A DNA stretch of 64,000 nucleotides from assembly GCA_977018835.1 (NCBI GenBank), contig OZ361260.1, positions 3,658,001 to 3,722,000 on the forward strand, read 5' to 3'. Made by a program: the position numbers and the translations under genes. Of this stretch, positions 55,446-63,876 are shown piece by piece (positions within the stretch are counted from its first letter, which is position 1; the number at the start of each line of letters is the position of its first letter). The notes under the pieces are model-generated. The model was not told where the DNA came from, did no database searches, and worked only from the letters and a program-made list of their open reading frames with translations. This DNA is from Minutocellus sp. GHC0000111. Its lineage: Eukaryota.

Positions 55446-57797
55446 TCAAGGCAAGAACAGATCCGCGCCCTCAATGCCCCTGCAGCACTCGCAATCGACC
55501 AAATCGGCATGAATACCGGACCACAAGACGAAAAGAAGACATCCCTCCTCCTTTGTGTACGATTGGTGTATGCTGCCAACAGCATTATACAAAATTTGAC
55601 CTTCTCGAGTTGACCGATCAACAAATTTACCTTCCGTGCCCAAGCTTGAAATAGCGCTCATGGACAATTGCAATTGTTCCTTTGCTAGAGCCATGTCATC
55701 ATCATTGGGTTCTTCATAGAGCTTACCGGAATACGCCGACATCGACAGCTCTACACCCCGTTTAAGGTGATTAGATGACATTGAAGCACCAATGAGCCTT
55801 CGTTCCCATAGCTCTCCAACAAGAGGGACAATCAGTTCAACGCTTGGATGGGCGTGCAGCTTAAATTCAAAACCCTTGGGACAGGCGAGAAGCTGAAGCT
55901 TAAGTGGGTGTGAATTTGAGGTACCCTTGGCATTGACTTCGTTGACCAAAATGTCATCGGGAAGGGCATTCAGAAGAGCAGCAAAGTACTGGGAATCAAA
56001 TCGATCCTGTGCTTCTGAAGTTGCAAAGCATGGCGATACATCACTGGAAAGCGGAAGCGAAGAAGCGAGAGTCTCCAAAATCGCCGATGGTGATTCCGAG
56101 AACAGATCTCCGCGATTCAGCCACATGGGCGTTGATAACACAACCTTATCAAGTCCATCAAGCCAACCACGCAAATCTCCTTGGAATTCTGAATCAAGCC
56201 CGATCTTGATACTTGGAAACATGGATTCAGTCGACGGATTTCTATTCCGAGATTCCCACGGTAACAAGCTGGGGCGGTGCTTGATGGAAAGCTTGTGCAT
56301 GACGGGATGCACATGCTCGTCCTGGACAAGTTCGATTACGCAGCAACCATGCTCCTTGGCAGAATTCCAGCTAGACTTGATTGTTTCTGCAATTACCTCT
56401 GGGTTTGATGTTGAAACAACTGAGCCATTGGGATAAGAGTAGGCATCAAAGAGCTTGACATAGTCCGGCGAGCCGATATGGCATCCATCCGCTCGAACTC
56501 TTGGACCCCAAGTTTCATTTTGAACACGACCGAGACGTTTATTGACGATGATGACGACCAATACATTTTTGGCTCCGTGGTCCTTTAGAGTCGCTAATTC
56601 GTTCAAACTCATTTGAATGCCTCCATCTCCTGCTACGATGAGGGTCTTGGGGGTGCTTTCGCCGCTAATATCAGCCTTGTCAGCTGCCGAAAGAGAAGCG
56701 GCAAGACCTGAATTTATGGCATATCCCATAATACCAAGGTGCTCCGACGAAAGGAATCTCTGCCCACGTTTTGCAGCAAGGCTCGATCCCAACCAAAGTG
56801 CATTGTCACCGATATCAGCGCATATAACACTGTCTTCATCAAGGTGCTTCGCCATCACATCAAAGAACACGGCAGGATGGCAATATTCCGTGCTTTTGAC
56901 GTCCTTCGGTTCAATACATTTCCCCTGCAGAAAAGTACTGGGTGTTCCAGTCGGCTTACTTATTGATCCTCTCTTCAGTTCTGCCCAAATATCCGTGGGA
57001 GCTTCAACCTCGTGCGTCTCGCTTTGTTCGCGTGAAAGACTTATCGCCTCGAGAGAAGCCAGCCGACTGTGATGTTGAGGATCACTGCGGACCGATTCCG
57101 CTAAGCCTTGAACAACTTTTCCCAGCGATTCCTTTAGATAGCCACAGCTGAATACGGTGGACGGAGAAAAGCGCAGGGAATCACCGGCAACCAAGCGTTC
57201 ATCAATCTGAATGAGCCTTCGGATCTGTAGACCGGACTTGTTTGTCAGGAGCTCTGTCATATCGTTGAGGCATATGCCGATGATGGTATCAAAGTCTTGC
57301 AGCAAATCAACGGCCGATGGAGTACCAGCATTTCCATACACGCCCACAACACCATATGCCAGCGGATGAGCCTCATCAACGGTGCCCTTGCCGTCGAACG
57401 AAGTCAGAATCGGACAATGTAAGAGCTCGGCCAGACGTTCCACTTCCCGTCCAACCGCATGGGCTCGATATCCGCACGCAATCACCACATGTCGCTTGGA
57501 CTCCAATTCCGTTCGGAGGGCCATGGTCAAGGCATCGACCTGCAACTGTGGGGCGGGCGTCGTCACACGCGACTGGAATGCGGTGCCCAAACAAAAATGC
57601 GACCGACCGACGATGGTGTCCTGCTGCACATTGATCGGAACGGCAAGATGAGTGCATCGATTGGAAGCCAAGGACATGGTGAAGGCATTGCGCGTCAATG
57701 GCAGCAGCTGATGAATATCTGCCACAGTCTCCGACAGTGGTAGACCGGCCATGCGAAATATCGCCGCCTGATAACAACAACGTTCGATCCAACTCAA
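55446..57797 (-). CDS. Thiamine-pyrophosphate enzyme (acetolactate synthase/pyruvate oxidase family) fused to a C-terminal cupin; most of the N-terminal domain is missing
   Basis: Central domain LTSFDGKGTVDEAHPLAYGVVGVYG; ADIGDN, LGIMGYAI and AGDGGIQMSLNELAT...NKRLG TPP motif; cupin FKLHAHPSVE...GSIHQSYTKEEGCLLFVLW. Confidence 0.8.
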   Translation of the reverse strand: MSWIERCCYQAAIFRMAGLPLSETVADIHQLLPLTRNAFTMSLASNRCTHLAVPINVQQDTIVGRSHFCLGTAFQSRVTTPAPQLQVDALTMALRTELESKRHVVIACGYRAHAVGREVERLAELLHCPILTSFDGKGTVDEAHPLAYGVVGVYGNAGTPSAVDLLQDFDTIIGICLNDMTELLTNKSGLQIRRLIQIDERLVAGDSLRFSPSTVFSCGYLKESLGKVVQGLAESVRSDPQHHSRLASLEAISLSREQSETHEVEAPTDIWAELKRGSISKPTGTPSTFLQGKCIEPKDVKSTEYCHPAVFFDVMAKHLDEDSVICADIGDNALWLGSSLAAKRGQRFLSSEHLGIMGYAINSGLAASLSAADKADISGESTPKTLIVAGDGGIQMSLNELATLKDHGAKNVLVVIIVNKRLGRVQNETWGPRVRADGCHIGSPDYVKLFDAYSYPNGSVVSTSNPEVIAETIKSSWNSAKEHGCCVIELVQDEHVHPVMHKLSIKHRPSLLPWESRNRNPSTESMFPSIKIGLDSEFQGDLRGWLDGLDKVVLSTPMWLNRGDLFSESPSAILETLASSLPLSSDVSPCFATSEAQDRFDSQYFAALLNALPDDILVNEVNAKGTSNSHPLKLQLLACPKGFEFKLHAHPSVELIVPLVGELWERRLIGASMSSNHLKRGVELSMSAYSGKLYEEPNDDDMALAKEQLQLSMSAISSLGTEGKFVDRSTREGQILYNAVGSIHQSYTKEEGCLLFVLWSGIHADLVDCECCRGIEGADLFLP

Positions 57798-57801
57798 AGA
57801 T

Positions 57802-59153
57802 ATGCCCCTTATGCCACCGGCGGCACCATCGATGGCTACGTCGCTCCCGGCTGGGACAAGGTCCGTGATGCCTTCTCTAAAAATTGTGCTGACGGGCAGG
57901 AAGTTCAGGCTCAGCTGTGCATCACTCGAGGAGATGGCGAATCGCTTGTGGACCTAATGGGTGTCAACTCCTCCGTTGCTGCTGCAGCCGCTTCGGATAA
58001 GTCCCATGATGAGTACACCCTCGACACAGTCCAGCCCATCTGGTCCTGCGGCAAGAATCTCGAGGTTCTCGTCGTGGCCATCCTCGTAGATCGTGGCCTG
58101 GTTCAGTATGACGATCCCATCTGCAAGCACTGGCCTGCCTTCGCGAAGCAGGGCAAGGGGGGCAGAACTATTGCCGATCTCATGCGCCACAGCGCTGGCA
58201 TGGCCTACTTTGTCGATCCCGAGGATCCCGACAACAAGTTCAACCCGCTCACGGCCGAGGATATTGTTGCGAGAACTCCCATGCACGAGCTCATCGAGAA
58301 CTCGCCACCTCAACAATTCGGCAAAAGTAAGCGCACGTACCATACTTTATCTCGAGGATTTGTCGTGGATGGTCTTCTCAAACACGTCGATCCTCAAGGC
58401 CGAACCATTGGCCAGTTTGCCCGTGACGAGATTTTGATCCCCCTCGGCATTGACGACTCGTACTTTGTATCCCTCCCAGTTGGAGAGAGCGCAAAGGTCT
58501 CGGTCGCCAACCTCTGCCCTCCTCACCCAGCGTACTCCATGCATTTCGATTTTGGACCTGCACTCATGGGAGCCGGAACGCCCGACATGAAGTTCATCCT
58601 TCAATTTCTCAATCCAGCATCGGTCGCCAATCGCTGCCAGCTAGGTGTGAGCGGTTACAAAGATGACGATCCACAGGGAACCGGCATATACATGAATTCG
58701 GGTGGTGCTCCAGCCAGAATTGCGGAGTGCACGAGCGCATGGAGCTTTGCATCAGCTCGAGCTCTAACGAAGGTGCTATCCGTTTTTACAAACGGCGGTG
58801 TGTCGGGTGGAACGCGTATTATATCCACGGAGACGGCAAAGAAGGCTCTAGACAAGATGATATTCGAGGTTGATGAGTTCTCTAGCTTGTCCTGCGAGTT
58901 CAGCCAAGGGGGTATTGGAAATATTCATTCTCTCATGAAGGACTTTGGCTTTGTCGCTGAGGATACTGTGGCGGCATATCAGGGATGGATCGGTTGGTTT
59001 GGATATGGAGGCAGCCTCAATTTTACAAATATTGAGGAGAAGGTCACAGTGTCGTACACCATCACTGGTATGAGTGTGCGCGCTCCTGATCCTCGTGGTC
59101 TTGGAATCATGAAGGCCGTGGCGGAGGTTCTTGAGCGAGACTCACCACAATAA
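57802..59153 (+). CDS. Beta-lactamase/class C-family serine hydrolase (start uncertain)
   Basis: IDGYVAPGWDKVRDAF upstream of the listed ORF in the same frame; SxxK (WSCGK), DDPICKHWPAF, TIADLMRHSAG, YH and GWFGYGGS. The ATG at 57802 is one base out of frame. Confidence 0.8.
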
Positions 59154-59345
59154 TCTGAGCGAAGAAAATGTAGAGAAATCTTGTTGTTTGTGAAGCAAAG
59201 ACTATATAAGACTCTACACTACGTAATAGATTACATCGCGGTGGTCTCAAATTTTTTAAATACCATTTGTCTGAAGGCCCTTCCTCTATACAACAGCACT
59301 CCAAATACTGGACGTCTTTTCCTATCTACACCTCGAGGACAAAAG

Positions 59346-59861
59346 CTATTTGTACATCTCGACAAGATCTCCGCATTTAATCATGTTGCGAGCTTTCTCT
59401 CTAATCTGAGTGTTGCTCCTCTTCTTTAGCTTCGGGGAGTGTTTCTGGATCTGGACCCACTTACCATGCCCATGCTTTTTATAACCCTCCAGGAAAGCCT
59501 TGGTCTCCTCGTCAGTCCACCTCTTGCGTGGGCTTTGATAGCCAGCTCTATCACTAGGGCGTAGAACGTCGTAGTAATTTGCGTTGCGGAGAAGACGCTT
59601 CGCAAGCTTCCGCTTGTGCCCAACTGTCTTGAGGTTGTGCTTCCTACAGAGAGAACGAAGAAGGTCAACGTCGATGTCATCTTCACGATACTCAAACGCC
59701 ATTCTCGCTTCTAGGCGAAGCTTTGCCATGATACTTTTGGCTCCCTCGATGGGACCTTTGCTCTTGAAAAGGGCGGTAGCCTCCTCCATCTGCGCCAATT
59801 TGATCAGGAAGTTGTTGTCGATAGCATTGGAAAAGTCTCTCTGGAATTGTTCGGCATTCAT
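59346..59861 (-). CDS. SAP-domain + telobox-type Myb/SANT protein
   Basis: DVDLLRSLCRKHNLKTVGHKRKLAKRL (SAP pattern) and RKRWTDEETKAFLEGYKKHGHGKWVQI...RSNTQIREKARNM (TRF/TRB-like Myb; LKDKWRN is replaced by IREKARN). Confidence 0.75.
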   Translation of the reverse strand: MNAEQFQRDFSNAIDNNFLIKLAQMEEATALFKSKGPIEGAKSIMAKLRLEARMAFEYREDDIDVDLLRSLCRKHNLKTVGHKRKLAKRLLRNANYYDVLRPSDRAGYQSPRKRWTDEETKAFLEGYKKHGHGKWVQIQKHSPKLKKRSNTQIREKARNMIKCGDLVEMYK

Positions 59862-59927
59862 TTTATTTGATCCGTTTCAGTTGCAATATGAATAATTGCA
59901 GTACGTCGTAGGAATAGAAAAATGTTG

Positions 59928-60435
59928 AACTTTCGGGCGCAGCCCGAAAGTTTCGAGTCGAAAGTTTCCCCGCGAAGCGAAGCGAGCGGTGTCTCCGGCA
60001 CAAAAAACGAGAGGAACGAAAGATACCTTCGTGTTGTGGACAACGAACTGGTCTATGACTTGCCTCTTCGCGATCGATAATATCAAATCCGAGTAGGGTT
60101 AGGGTTTGACCGCAACCCTACCTCGGTCGGGATCAATTCCGATCCCATTTTGATTAGGGTTGCGGGTGGCGAACCTCAGCTGCGTTGGCTCCGATCTCGG
60201 GGGCCCGTGCGTCGCAATTGTTGGTGTCAAGCTTGCCGAATCGATTCCTTCCCAGCGTATTTCAAATCAGACAACAGCAGCTGAGCATTCAGATTCATTC
60301 CTGCTGTCCGTAGTACTGCAATTGTCTGTGGCGCCGACCATGCGATTCGAGCGGAGTCCGGAATGTGCTGCTTCATACGCACCAATTGGTAGCAGCCTTG
60401 TTTACGATGCTGGAAGCAAGGTACGTGTGTGAATT
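59928..60435 (+). ncRNA. Candidate structured non-coding RNA (family unknown) containing TTAGGG motifs; boundaries approximate
   Basis: Contiguous nested helices found by eye, e.g. 60187-60200/60347-60358, 60211-60216/60341-60346, 60220-60229/60329-60338, 60268-60274/60322-60328, 60372-60380/60425-60433; about ten G-U pairs when read on the + strand; no credible ORF. Confidence 0.55.
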
Positions 60436-60666
60436 CTTAATGTTTGAGTGAGGATGCGCCAATATTGGCCTGTAGATACATCTGCATGTGCATGAATGAC
60501 CAATTTGTAATTGGATCTCTTTGTGTTCATGCCTGTCCTGAAGCTTTTGATGAAGCATGAATTATTTTTATGTGCATAACAATGTTCTGTGAGCATGCCG
60601 CATTTGCGCACATGTATAAATTCATGTATGTAATATTGCATCGAATTCTCTAATGGAGCGCATATT

Positions 60667-63169
60667 TTATTGATTCAACCTTTCCATCGCTTTAGAATAC
60701 TTGCCATACCGCTTTCCAAGTCCAGTAACCATGGACTTAGCCCTGGCGCCCGCAACAGTAATCTTTTCGGCTCCTGCAGCTACTGCCTCCTCTTCCAATT
60801 GTCGCATCTTTTGCATTACGGCTTTCTCGATATCTTTTGTGATCTTGGCAATGTTTGCCTCTTGGGTTACATTTCCTGCTTCTGGCTTCCGACGGAGGGC
60901 TTCTTTCTGGGCGTCTGTCCAGACCGCATCAACGAGGAGGAGGCAGTGCTGCATGACCACTTGGTTCGCCTCCGATATGAATGGGATTTTTGGCTTGTCC
61001 TTCTTGCCAAAGTCGGTCAATGGAACGCCGGTAGACAAGAGGCCTCTCTCAAACATGCGGGTCAAGGCATCAGCAAGAGTGATGCCGGCGTCACTTGCAG
61101 TAGTATCCTGCATCGCCTTGGTGCCATACTTCACCATTTCTTGGCAGCGGTTCTTGCATTTTGGAAGAAGGATGCTCTGGCACTGTTGCTTGTAGGTGGC
61201 ACCGCGGGCGCCTCATCTGATGCTGTGACACCAATAGCGGCAGCGGCGGCTGCAGTTGGCACAGCAGCGAGGGTGGGAATATTGGTGGAGGAATTATTGT
61301 TCGGAATGGCATCGGGCACAGGTGCATTAGGGCCGGAGCTGCTGCTACCGGTAGAAATGCGCCGGCGCTTGTTTCCGCTACTAGTGCCGGTCGATGATGA
61401 TGGAGATGATGAAGCCCTCGCTGGAGGTACTTGGAGGCTTAATTTGGTCATAATGGCGGTGAGCATTTGATCTCGGCGTGCATCATTGGCATCCCGGTTG
61501 CGGTCTCGTTCGTCTCGGAGGGAAAGCTCTCTGTGCAGGCTGTCTCTGATCTGGTTCGACTGAGACAGTTCAGCCTCGAGTTGTTGGACACGCTGCATCA
61601 TGCGATTCGCCAATCGATTGCTGGTTGCTACGCTCCTACACACATGGTCCATATCGGCTCGTCCGTCTTGATTCGACGGTGATTGAGGAAAATTATCCAA
61701 TTCGAACCTCTTCTTGATGCGATCGGACCAATCCTTGAATTCTTCGGCGGACACACCAGCAACCTCAGCAGCAGTGTTAACCTTTTCGATGATAATGTGT
61801 TACCATCGGGATAGTCGGCCTCCATTTGTGGATGATACATGATAATGGAGGCAAGGGCTGTTTGGACTAGCATGGTGAGGCGACCATGGGAACGGAGTTC
61901 GTCGAGCTCCGGTGCGACATAAAATAGACTCTGGATAAACAATCTAACCCTGTGGACATTTTCAGCACCAAGGGGATCAAGAGTTGGTGGATGTACCATT
62001 TCTTCTGGGTTGGGCCAGTCAGCAATGGCACGGGCAGGCACCATGGTGAGGGCGGGAACAGACATAACGTAATGCTCGGTAGAATCAGGCCGAGCGTGGC
62101 CAGAAAGCATCGTGTGCATGTCTCCAATAACAAAGCGGTTGCCTGCAAGGACTGTATTAAATCCTTTACGTATACTTTTGGCACTGGTCCATTTCTTGCA
62201 TTTCTCGTCTGAAAGCTTCTTCACCACAGAAGTAACTTTCCTCGTAACAGCCTCGTTTGGCATAGATTGTAGAGATGGGAAAATGCATTTGATTCGGGGA
62301 TCCTTTGAGTTGGGACGACGGAGACCACCTTCAATTACAAAGCACCCAAATGCATGGTAGATATCAGTGGCATAGTACTCAGGATCACTGACAAAGGGCA
62401 CATCCTTTTGGGTTAGCTGCTTGACCTGGGTCCACACACCGGTAAGGCATTTGAAATATTCATCCCACGCCATTTTGTTGTACTTAAGATGCTTCGGCTC
62501 TCCTCCTCGTCCGCCGGCAAGGTAGAGAGTGACAAGGATGAATCGCCACTCAAATGGATTGTTCAAAAAAGTTGCAGTACCACTGATGAGCTTCTTCATC
62601 ATGCTCACGAGATCTCTACCCTCAAGGTCCTTCCAATATCCATCCCACGACATGCCGTCTACTTCTTGCCTCTGAGTTAGATGAAGATAGTCTGGCTTGA
62701 GCTTTTTCACGATGGCACGAGTGTCGAGATCTTTTTCGTTGGCATCGTCATCGAGCAAACGACGGCCGACTCCGGTCAGGAGACGCTTCCGCATATCGGT
62801 GTACCAGAGCCTCTCGTGGTCGACCCATATCTTGAGAGTCGGGTGCTTCTCTTTTATAATCTCCTTCACTTGGCCGAAGTACTGAGCAAGCGTGTCAGTG
62901 GCGGTTGACACAGTAGGGTTCGACTTATTTTTGATATCCTCTTCAATCAAATACGTCTGCAGCCCGATGAGCTCGACCGTCACAGTCTCTCCTTTCAAGT
63001 CGTTCTCGTCTTCCTTTCCGTTGTGGCTTTCCATCTCGAGCACGAAGGCCGAGTAAGTCTCATCGCTCTTCTCCTTGTAATCGAGGTACATCTGCCAGGC
63101 GTTTTTCCGCCCTGCGGTAGTAGCCTCTGCTTGGCCAATAACTGCCGCCGGAGCGCTCGTATCCGTCAT
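60667..63169 (-). CDS. Crypton-like tyrosine recombinase, about 830 aa, with two apparent 1-nt deletions (about 61798 and 61138)
   Basis: Catalytic order R (GGRGGE), K (QVKQ), KSIRKG (in place of HxxR), SGH and Y (STEHY), with IFPSL; ORFs 61628-63169, 61131-61754 and 60667-61137 join by adding one A at each shift; no introns and no RT. Confidence 0.75.
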
Positions 63170-63876
63170 CGTTTCCCGTCAATACAATGCAAGAAGATGG
63201 CTATATTACACGAGAAAAAATGACGAGAATCGATCGGCGGGTGGTTTGCGGTGGTGGTAGAGTCGAGCCAGTCACACCCTGATGATGAGTCGCGTCAGTC
63301 GACTATGAATACGAGGCTAGGTTACTGTACTTTATCCCGACTCGAAAGTTTGCTCTGGTGTTATGTACTCTCAACTCGAAAGTTCGTCGAAAAAGAAGAA
63401 AAAGTGAGATGGAGTGGAGTCGGTCCTTTTGCATCAAAATCGTGGAGTATTTGAATGAATCGTGGGAGGAGAATCTCCGATACTTTTTGAATTCGCAAAG
63501 AATTTAGTGAGAAGCGGCGAAACTCATACCTCTCTTAGGGTTCACCGAGCGCAGTTCATCGTAAAAGTTTGACAATAAAGTAAGGAAAAACGGAAACGGC
63601 GATGCCCTTTACATTCTACGGTTGACTCTTAGTGTTAAAAGAAGCGCTGTTATCACAGAAACTTTTGGAACTGCAGTTTGAATCATCGAATCCAGTTGAA
63701 AGAAAATCCAGGCGTAGGATTCCGATGCATCTGGATCGCATGTCAAGGCCAGCCTGCCATCTGCAGAAAACTCCTACCTCTACCGCTTCTGTGTACCGGT
63801 AAACTGTCGTTTCTCTCTCCAGTCGAGTCTCTATTTCAATATCCTTCATTCAACAGGTTTTCCCTAATTCTCAACC

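Follow-up and report, generated by a model that had tools for sequence, protein, structure and literature searches.

The CryptonS elements of oomycetes and Phaeodactylum (Kojima and Jurka 2011, PMC3212892) are described as DNA transposons of about 3.5 kb that carry a single tyrosine-recombinase gene, whose product has a conserved C-terminal region and no GCR1_C domain, and that end in 5-bp terminal direct repeats, in the majority TATGG. The same source reports non-autonomous deletion derivatives for other Crypton groups, states that no conserved nucleotide sequences are found among Cryptons of different species, and called the transcription and regulation of Cryptons unstudied in 2011. CryptonF-1_cRei of Chlamydomonas is described as inserting through recombination at a short core (CAYCG) that it has in common with the target, with clean empty sites and a preference for the proximity of genes (PMC9977147). 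In 2026, the mechanism by which Cryptons transpose was described as undemonstrated (PMC13565253).

Antisense RNA from transposons is already a known kind of transcript. In Phytophthora infestans, an antisense small RNA of 32 nt with a predicted structure comes from the 3' end of a stramenopile Crypton, Crypton6, where it arises from a tRNA-like SINE insertion (PMC3522703). Element-internal promoters are described for LINE-1, whose antisense promoter yields RNA antisense to the mobility gene, and for the ends of DNA transposons, which carry inward promoters; LINE-1 antisense promoters are described as lowering mobility, for which double-stranded RNA is the proposed route (PMC3878927). Fanzor-carrying Cryptons have a non-coding RNA region, that of the Fanzor omega-RNA, at the 3' end of the transposon (PMC13565253).

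Here, we describe a Crypton-like element in the window, by which we mean the whole 64,000-nt stretch of DNA that was analyzed, together with an RNA that reads inward from the element end. The element shares with CryptonS the single recombinase gene with its conserved C-terminal region and without GCR1_C, the length, the 5-bp direct repeats, and a likely stramenopile host, and it too has a non-autonomous deletion derivative. It differs in its core, which is an A/T run (A5, and T4 at the junction of a related metagenome family, L001) instead of TATGG, and with this one exception it fits the description of Cryptons in PMC3212892 and PMC9977147. In contrast to the lack of conserved nucleotide sequence stated for Cryptons of different species, subterminal palindromes are common here to families with 41% identity. 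The element resembles CryptonF-1_cRei in its insertion at a short core shared with the target, its clean empty site, and its position near a gene, but the core is an A run, and no antisense RNA is mentioned in the passages on it in PMC9977147. Compared with the small RNA of Crypton6, the RNA of this locus is long and spliced, and its hairpin module holds only a B-box-like word, with no A box or tRNA fold. In contrast to LINE-1, the promoter here probably belongs to a DNA transposon with a tyrosine recombinase, at the 3' end of which it lies, and its RNA is transcribed convergently towards the gene. No Fanzor/TnpB Pfam family was detected among the long frames of the element, and its RNA is spliced and transcribed from the end inward, whereas an omega-RNA extends outward as far as the transposon end. 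A literature search that covered chiefly open-access papers found no spliced antisense RNA in a Crypton.

The element, its ends, and its recombinase gene

The element is a tyrosine-recombinase DNA transposon of 3486 bp (59918..63403), whose limits are given by an empty site and by the flanks of a second copy. In DNA run X8, a contig of the empty site joins 59922 to the right flank, which is seen as a loose end in X9, and a second copy, which carries an internal deletion (60520>62671), adjoins different flanking sequence at 59917 and 63402. DNA run X9 contains the left-hand loose ends of both the empty and the second-copy forms. The insertion is polymorphic, and its mobility is indicated by the joint of the empty site and the flanks of the second site in X8, X9, and X1, and by L003, in which an end of the related family of L001 is seen integrated.

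Both ends carry the direct repeat A5 on the + strand. The left core (59918..59922), which corresponds to a single A6 run at the empty site, is the likely crossover site; the right core lies at 63399..63403, with loose ends behind 63402 in X1 and X8. Terminal inverted repeats are lacking, and just a 14-bp subterminal motif is inverted between the ends. The left end contains a subterminal palindrome with a further GAAAGTT repeat (59928..59966), in which 10-bp arms (59928-37/59943-52) enclose a 5-nt loop and which folds better than shuffles on both strands (z -2.8 to -4.9); GAAAGTT motifs recur at the other element end. Near the right end lie two copies of the ACTCGAAAGTT motif (63338..63385), which has five matches in the window against 0.87 expected, four of the five at element ends. 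Judged from sequence, the palindrome and the end motifs are likely candidates for recombinase-binding DNA sites.

The insertion lies 57 bp upstream of the ATG of a host gene outside the element, encoding a SAP and Myb protein (59346..59861, - strand; Pfam Myb E 5.9e-10, SAP E 0.01), and the flank with this gene is present at the empty site. The Myb domain is presumably telobox-like. The element inserted beside it carries, at 60094-60161, three of the six TAGGGTT/AACCCTA words of the whole window. Neighboring host genes in the window are those for a beta-lactamase-family protein (57948-59153, + strand; Pfam E 1e-33) and, as matched by Pfam, for a TPP enzyme with a weak C-terminal cupin match (55446-57797, - strand).

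The recombinase gene (60667..63169, - strand) matches an intact relative of 838 aa, P0002, in three pieces at 87, 73, and 83% identity, and has two frameshifts, one near 61790 and one between 61311 and 61143. These are not assembly errors, because a DNA contig matches 60492-62718 without difference. The protein of the element is a tyrosine recombinase. A profile search (E<=0.001) yielded 750 relatives, and among P0002 and the first 60 matches of at least 650 aa, R221 and K250 are kept in 61/61 and R334 and Y367 in 60/61 proteins. In the same 61 proteins, the H of HxxR is lost, with mostly S at position 332, and the C-terminal residues L750, L763, G823, and R825 are kept in 44-47. A Pfam Phage_integrase match (E 0.0046, below the cut-off) is found in P0003 only, a truncated frame that runs into the same terminal sequence and behind which the palindrome is kept. 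GCR1_C has no Pfam match in P0002, and no reverse transcriptase or DDE transposase Pfam family was found in the three recombinase frames or P0002 (2.5 of 3.49 kb). A structure model of the protein has a pLDDT of 83, and its best Foldseek matches are Flp, XerH, lambda Int, and Cre (best E 1.7e-3, none <=1e-3).

The nearest Atlas clusters of the recombinase are mostly from Bacillariophyta, followed by Oomycota, which makes a diatom the likely source of the window; the GT-AG intron described below marks it as eukaryotic. Recombinase relatives were found in none of 82 candidate stretches in viral contigs, in none of 91 in prokaryote genomes, and in 3 of 255 in metagenomes, with a full 3' flank in L001 alone. 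Scans of viral contigs with element motifs gave 6 and 16 matches, about the chance number, none of them with a recombinase or extending past the motif.

The second copy is a deleted one, made up of window positions 59918-60520 and 62671-63402, and is present in runs X1, X3, X8, and X9. It differs from the window copy mostly by T>C and A>G. Of the 30 changes listed (a further 20 rows lie outside this count), 25 are located in a TA dinucleotide, a context that accounts for 104 of the 666 A/T sites (p 4e-16). The window agrees with P0002 at nine of ten amino-acid-changing sites, and the changes therefore arose in the deleted copy. This copy also carries many short insertions, mostly GC-rich, and a change in the splice donor described below (A60423G). 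TA is depleted across the window as well (odds 0.55). The pattern suggests a mutation process that acts in one direction, by removing TA, and so is opposite to RIP.

The spliced antisense RNA

The RNA evidence consists of assembled, unstranded contigs from the six RNA runs compared (X1 and X3 to X7), out of seven. A contig of run X5 skips 275 nt with GT..AG on the + strand (joint 60420>60696; short side 41 nt, depth 2.8), and therefore the RNA is of the + strand and antisense to the recombinase. An earlier note on this DNA had proposed a + strand RNA antisense to the 3' flank of the recombinase gene; the strand call holds, but on account of the splice joint and not of the fold from which it had been drawn. 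In X3, a 14-nt loose end behind 60420 equals 60696-60709, a contig of X1 terminates at 60420, and a contig of X7 begins at 60694. The joint was not found in either of the two DNA runs compared.

Exon 1 (60056..60420, + strand) is covered in three of the six RNA runs, from two studies, by contigs of X1 (60056-60240 and 60219-60420), X3 (60059-60284), and X5 (60136-60330 and 60378-60418), and has no contig cover in X4 or X7; the splice evidence comes from two of the six runs, both of study P2, at a depth under 4. The intron (60421..60695, + strand, 275 nt) has a GC content of 0.37 against 0.53 in the exon. Exon 2 (60696..61769, + strand), antisense to the 3' part of the recombinase gene, is present in the spliced contig to at least 60800, and would extend from there as far as the strandless contigs of this region reach, to 61769 in X1, 61670 in X3, and 61650 in X4. 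Some contigs over 60610-61769 enter the intron (X4 from 60610, X3 from 60684), and the contigs of this stretch could include sense recombinase mRNA. Neither the empty result of X6 nor the stretches without RNA cover (59322-60017 and 62106-62627 in X1/X3/X4; most of the intron in X5/X7) were counted as evidence. The bounds of 60177-60435 given earlier for a discrete transcript have to be abandoned: RNA contigs reach upstream to 60056-60059, the exon stops at 60420, and 60421-60435 is intron, so that the span comprises the downstream two-thirds of exon 1 and the first 15 bases of the intron.

In studies P1 and P2, the contigs have their edges at 60056 and 60059 and carry no loose ends there, and the DNA runs continue past these positions, which is a weak hint that the RNA starts near 60056, about 140 bp inside the element end. 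The contigs that start there carry the alleles of the deleted copy, whose flanks differ. Because RNA of the deleted copy, with other flanks, begins at the same place, the promoter of the antisense RNA likely lies inside the element.

Once spliced, the RNA contains a frame of 262 codons opposite the recombinase C-terminus, to which an ATG at 60407 is joined, and it might on this account be the mRNA of an antisense protein. However, this ATG is the fourth of the RNA (the third if the start is at 60056), the frame crosses one frameshift of the window copy, and host genes of the window have antisense shadow frames as long as 359 aa. The L001 product in the like register has 62 aa, and with six candidate acceptors no product is longer than 130 aa. 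A protein-coding role appears most improbable.

The reading that we prefer, with a probability of roughly 0.55, is that the exon 1 stretch belongs to a spliced + strand RNA that runs from the end of a Crypton-like element into its recombinase gene, antisense to the 3' end of that gene, and that likely damps the recombinase. An inward promoter carried by the element, adjoining the 3' recombination site, would give rise to a spliced RNA that overlaps the 3' part of the recombinase mRNA, and either double-stranded RNA or a collision of the two transcription processes would limit the recombinase, in the way proposed for LINE-1 (PMC3878927). Such damping would need no multibranch fold. The window copy is frameshifted, so that the antisense RNA at this locus regulates no working gene in cis.

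Folding of exon 1

The earlier note had taken a long, G-U-rich multibranch fold at 60177-60435 as the mark of a discrete structured non-coding RNA. All ten of the named strand pairs are present on the + strand at the positions assigned to them, and the eight main helices contain 42 Watson-Crick and 8 G-U pairs, 50 in all, and are free of mismatches. The core helices 60220-29/60329-38 and 60268-74/60322-28 have a pair probability of 0.97; the GGCUCCG/CGGAGUC and CUCGG/UCGAG helices are absent from the minimum-energy fold and occur in the centroid only. The multibranch fold (60177..60370, + strand) can form, but its stability is at chance level. The + strand has a minimum free energy of -83.6 kcal/mol, and its shuffles average -83.63 (z 0.01), with 98 of 200 reaching the value of the real sequence; with both energy and G-U content at the level of chance the fold loses its value as a mark of a structured RNA. 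The - strand gives z +1.29, and the span trimmed to the exon (60177-60420) z +0.66. A helix of at least 10 bp is present in 91 of 300 further shuffles, a same-side paired run of at least 17 nt in 55 of 300, and at least 41 of 49 nt paired on one side in 28 of 300.

The preference for G-U over A-C pairs had been read as selection on a single strand. The fraction of G-U pairs is 0.155 against 0.15 in shuffles, and the listed helices contain G-U instead of A-C by construction, because G-U was allowed when the helices were picked. The energy gap between the + and - strands (-16.1) is mostly compositional (shuffles -9.6 +/- 4.5) and is reached by 6 of 100 shuffles, which makes it a weak point in favor of the fold. 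The proposed 3' domain (60372..60433, + strand) has its outer strand, 60425-33, in the intron (donor 60420/60421), and it cannot form in the mature RNA because intron bases are needed. In the second copy, both this domain and the proposed pseudoknot are broken by insertions at 60375-76 and by G60379A. No known family matches, with 0 Rfam matches at E<=5 over 58000-63000 and 0 at E<=10 over 60000-60500.

Compensatory changes in 60177-60435 number zero, as judged from one close variant copy, the deleted one. None of its six substitutions within 60177-60370 falls in the eight helices (naive p 0.012); three of the six are at TA sites, none of which is inside a helix, and the remaining three give p 0.14-0.42 once the TA/AT bias of the changes is taken into account. 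With its helices spared, the fold could still have some role. The structured non-coding RNA as first proposed does not stand.

A sliding fold scan found low-z segments at about 59928-59955 and 60089-60165, on both strands. Whole exon 1 folds with z -1.89, matched by 3 of 100 shuffles, and its sole significantly folded part is a hairpin module with alternative pairings (60089..60165, + strand). Within it, 60089-60151 has z -5.0 on each strand with none of 200 shuffles as good, and none of 160 background windows reaches z -4. Because the two strands give equal scores, the hairpins could be motifs of the DNA. Telomere-like TAGGGTT/AACCCTA motifs lie in the module, along with a B-box-like word (60130-40) and, at 60148, T4. 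The word, noticed post hoc, agrees with the strict B-box consensus and is one of three such words in 128 kb of window. The module has no match to an A box, and ARAGORN finds no tRNA-like fold in it even at -ps75.

Another locus in X8 and X9 matches 60108-60162 only, and it perhaps represents a related family of Cryptons, or else a dispersed module of the small-RNA or SINE kind. In the upstream loose letters of its contig, CCGAG stands in register at 60089-93, and CCC replaces the TTT of the window opposite GGG. The double change T60094C/A60120G was rejected as covariation, both positions being TA sites and thus mutation hot spots of the deleted copy. Telomerase RNA was considered for this module and rejected as well. 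A telomerase RNA has a template of about 1.5 repeats and a fixed host locus, but the transcribed strand here has a 7-nt AACCCUA only and the locus is missing from the empty allele. A literature search for diatom telomerase RNA templates found nothing.

A functional structured RNA that binds the recombinase or a host factor, in the proposed fold or in the 60089-60165 hairpins and perhaps Pol III/SINE-like, would be better centered on 60089-60165 than on the proposed span. There, the z of -5, the recurrence at another locus with CCC for TTT opposite GGG, and the B-box-like word followed by T4 agree with such an RNA, but the hairpins are equal on both strands, their sole double change (60094/60120) lies at two TA hot-spot sites, the A box and any Rfam or ARAGORN match are lacking, and L001 has no 80-nt window below z -2.3. 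In the proposed span, the pair probability of the core helices, the helices spared by all six substitutions, and the strand energy gap (p about 0.06) are set against z values of 0.01 and, when trimmed, +0.66, the intron bases needed by the 3' domain, and the insertions that strike the pseudoknot strand. We consider a structured RNA of either form distinctly unlikely, and continue with the reading of a spliced antisense RNA that likely damps the recombinase.

Possible conservation of the arrangement and proposed role of the RNA

L001 is a metagenome family whose recombinase protein has 41% identity to that of the window element, and it keeps the subterminal palindrome at 23 of 27 nt. The donor-like site AGGTRHGT, with 7 occurrences in 128 kb of window, occurs only once on the 3.6-kb antisense strand of L001, at 494 nt from the terminal hairpin against 490 in the window. 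At this site L001 steps from GC-rich to AT-rich (0.62 to 0.33), as does the window. From one homologue, with a predicted site and no L001 RNA seen, we infer that the donor arrangement is conserved across families.

Exon 1 and the L001 flank align with a global score of 85.5 against 86.2 for shuffles (161 of 300 as high), and the fold of the flank has z -0.12. A match of 15/16 between 60321-37 and L001 (E 0.3) was rejected as homology on account of its different offset and opposite hairpin side. Rfam gives three weak matches on L001, all below the gathering score, and relaxed ARAGORN calls in L001 (1 at -ps85, 3 at -ps75) were taken as noise.

Two further observations concern the related families. 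A 15-nt word is identical in the window (63261-63275, + strand), L001 (3295-3309), and L003 (218-232), in the 5' non-coding region of both families and in opposite orientation relative to the recombinase gene between families; from its sequence and position, it is possibly a promoter element. L001 also has an apparent sense intron after the catalytic domain (1395-1497), absent from both P0002 and the window copy.

Transposons commonly undergo cryptic antisense transcription, and the RNA could be a functionless product of this kind, in which the GC-rich element end acts as a weak promoter by chance and chance splice sites are used. The low depth (2.8-7), an exon without similarity in sequence or fold to that of L001, the lack of a conserved ORF, and the donor changed by A60423G in the deleted copy are all expected for such transcription, but a donor-like site at nearly equal distance from the terminal hairpin in 41%-identical L001 and a 5' edge that is the same in two studies and two insertion contexts are not. 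This account is doubtful in our view, albeit one to be taken seriously.

The L001 contig assembles end-to-start, giving a 3473-bp unit that is possibly a Crypton circle or a collapsed tandem array. Its junction (L001 3165-3175) has one T4 core and a contig overlap of 123 nt. In a circle, the promoter region would sit a few hundred bases upstream of the recombinase ATG, and the antisense RNA could then be a by-product of a bidirectional promoter that mainly drives the recombinase across the joined ends. No RNA is seen across the junction, however, L001 may be a tandem array that has been collapsed, and the element has a 5' region of its own of roughly 230 bp with deleted-copy RNA contigs over it. 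An origin of the RNA as such a by-product is very unlikely.

We return to the spliced antisense RNA as a likely damper of the recombinase. In a broader and speculative form of this reading, a diatom Crypton lineage would have kept an inward promoter and a donor at a fixed distance across families that are 41% alike, the spliced antisense RNA would serve as a brake on the element's own recombinase, and the promoter may switch to the recombinase in the circle. In this family, the ends and the A-run core are exactly defined, the candidate sites for recombinase binding are conserved, and there are an empty allele and an intact relative as well as a possible circle, which together make both the excision model and the proposed self-regulation of a Crypton testable.
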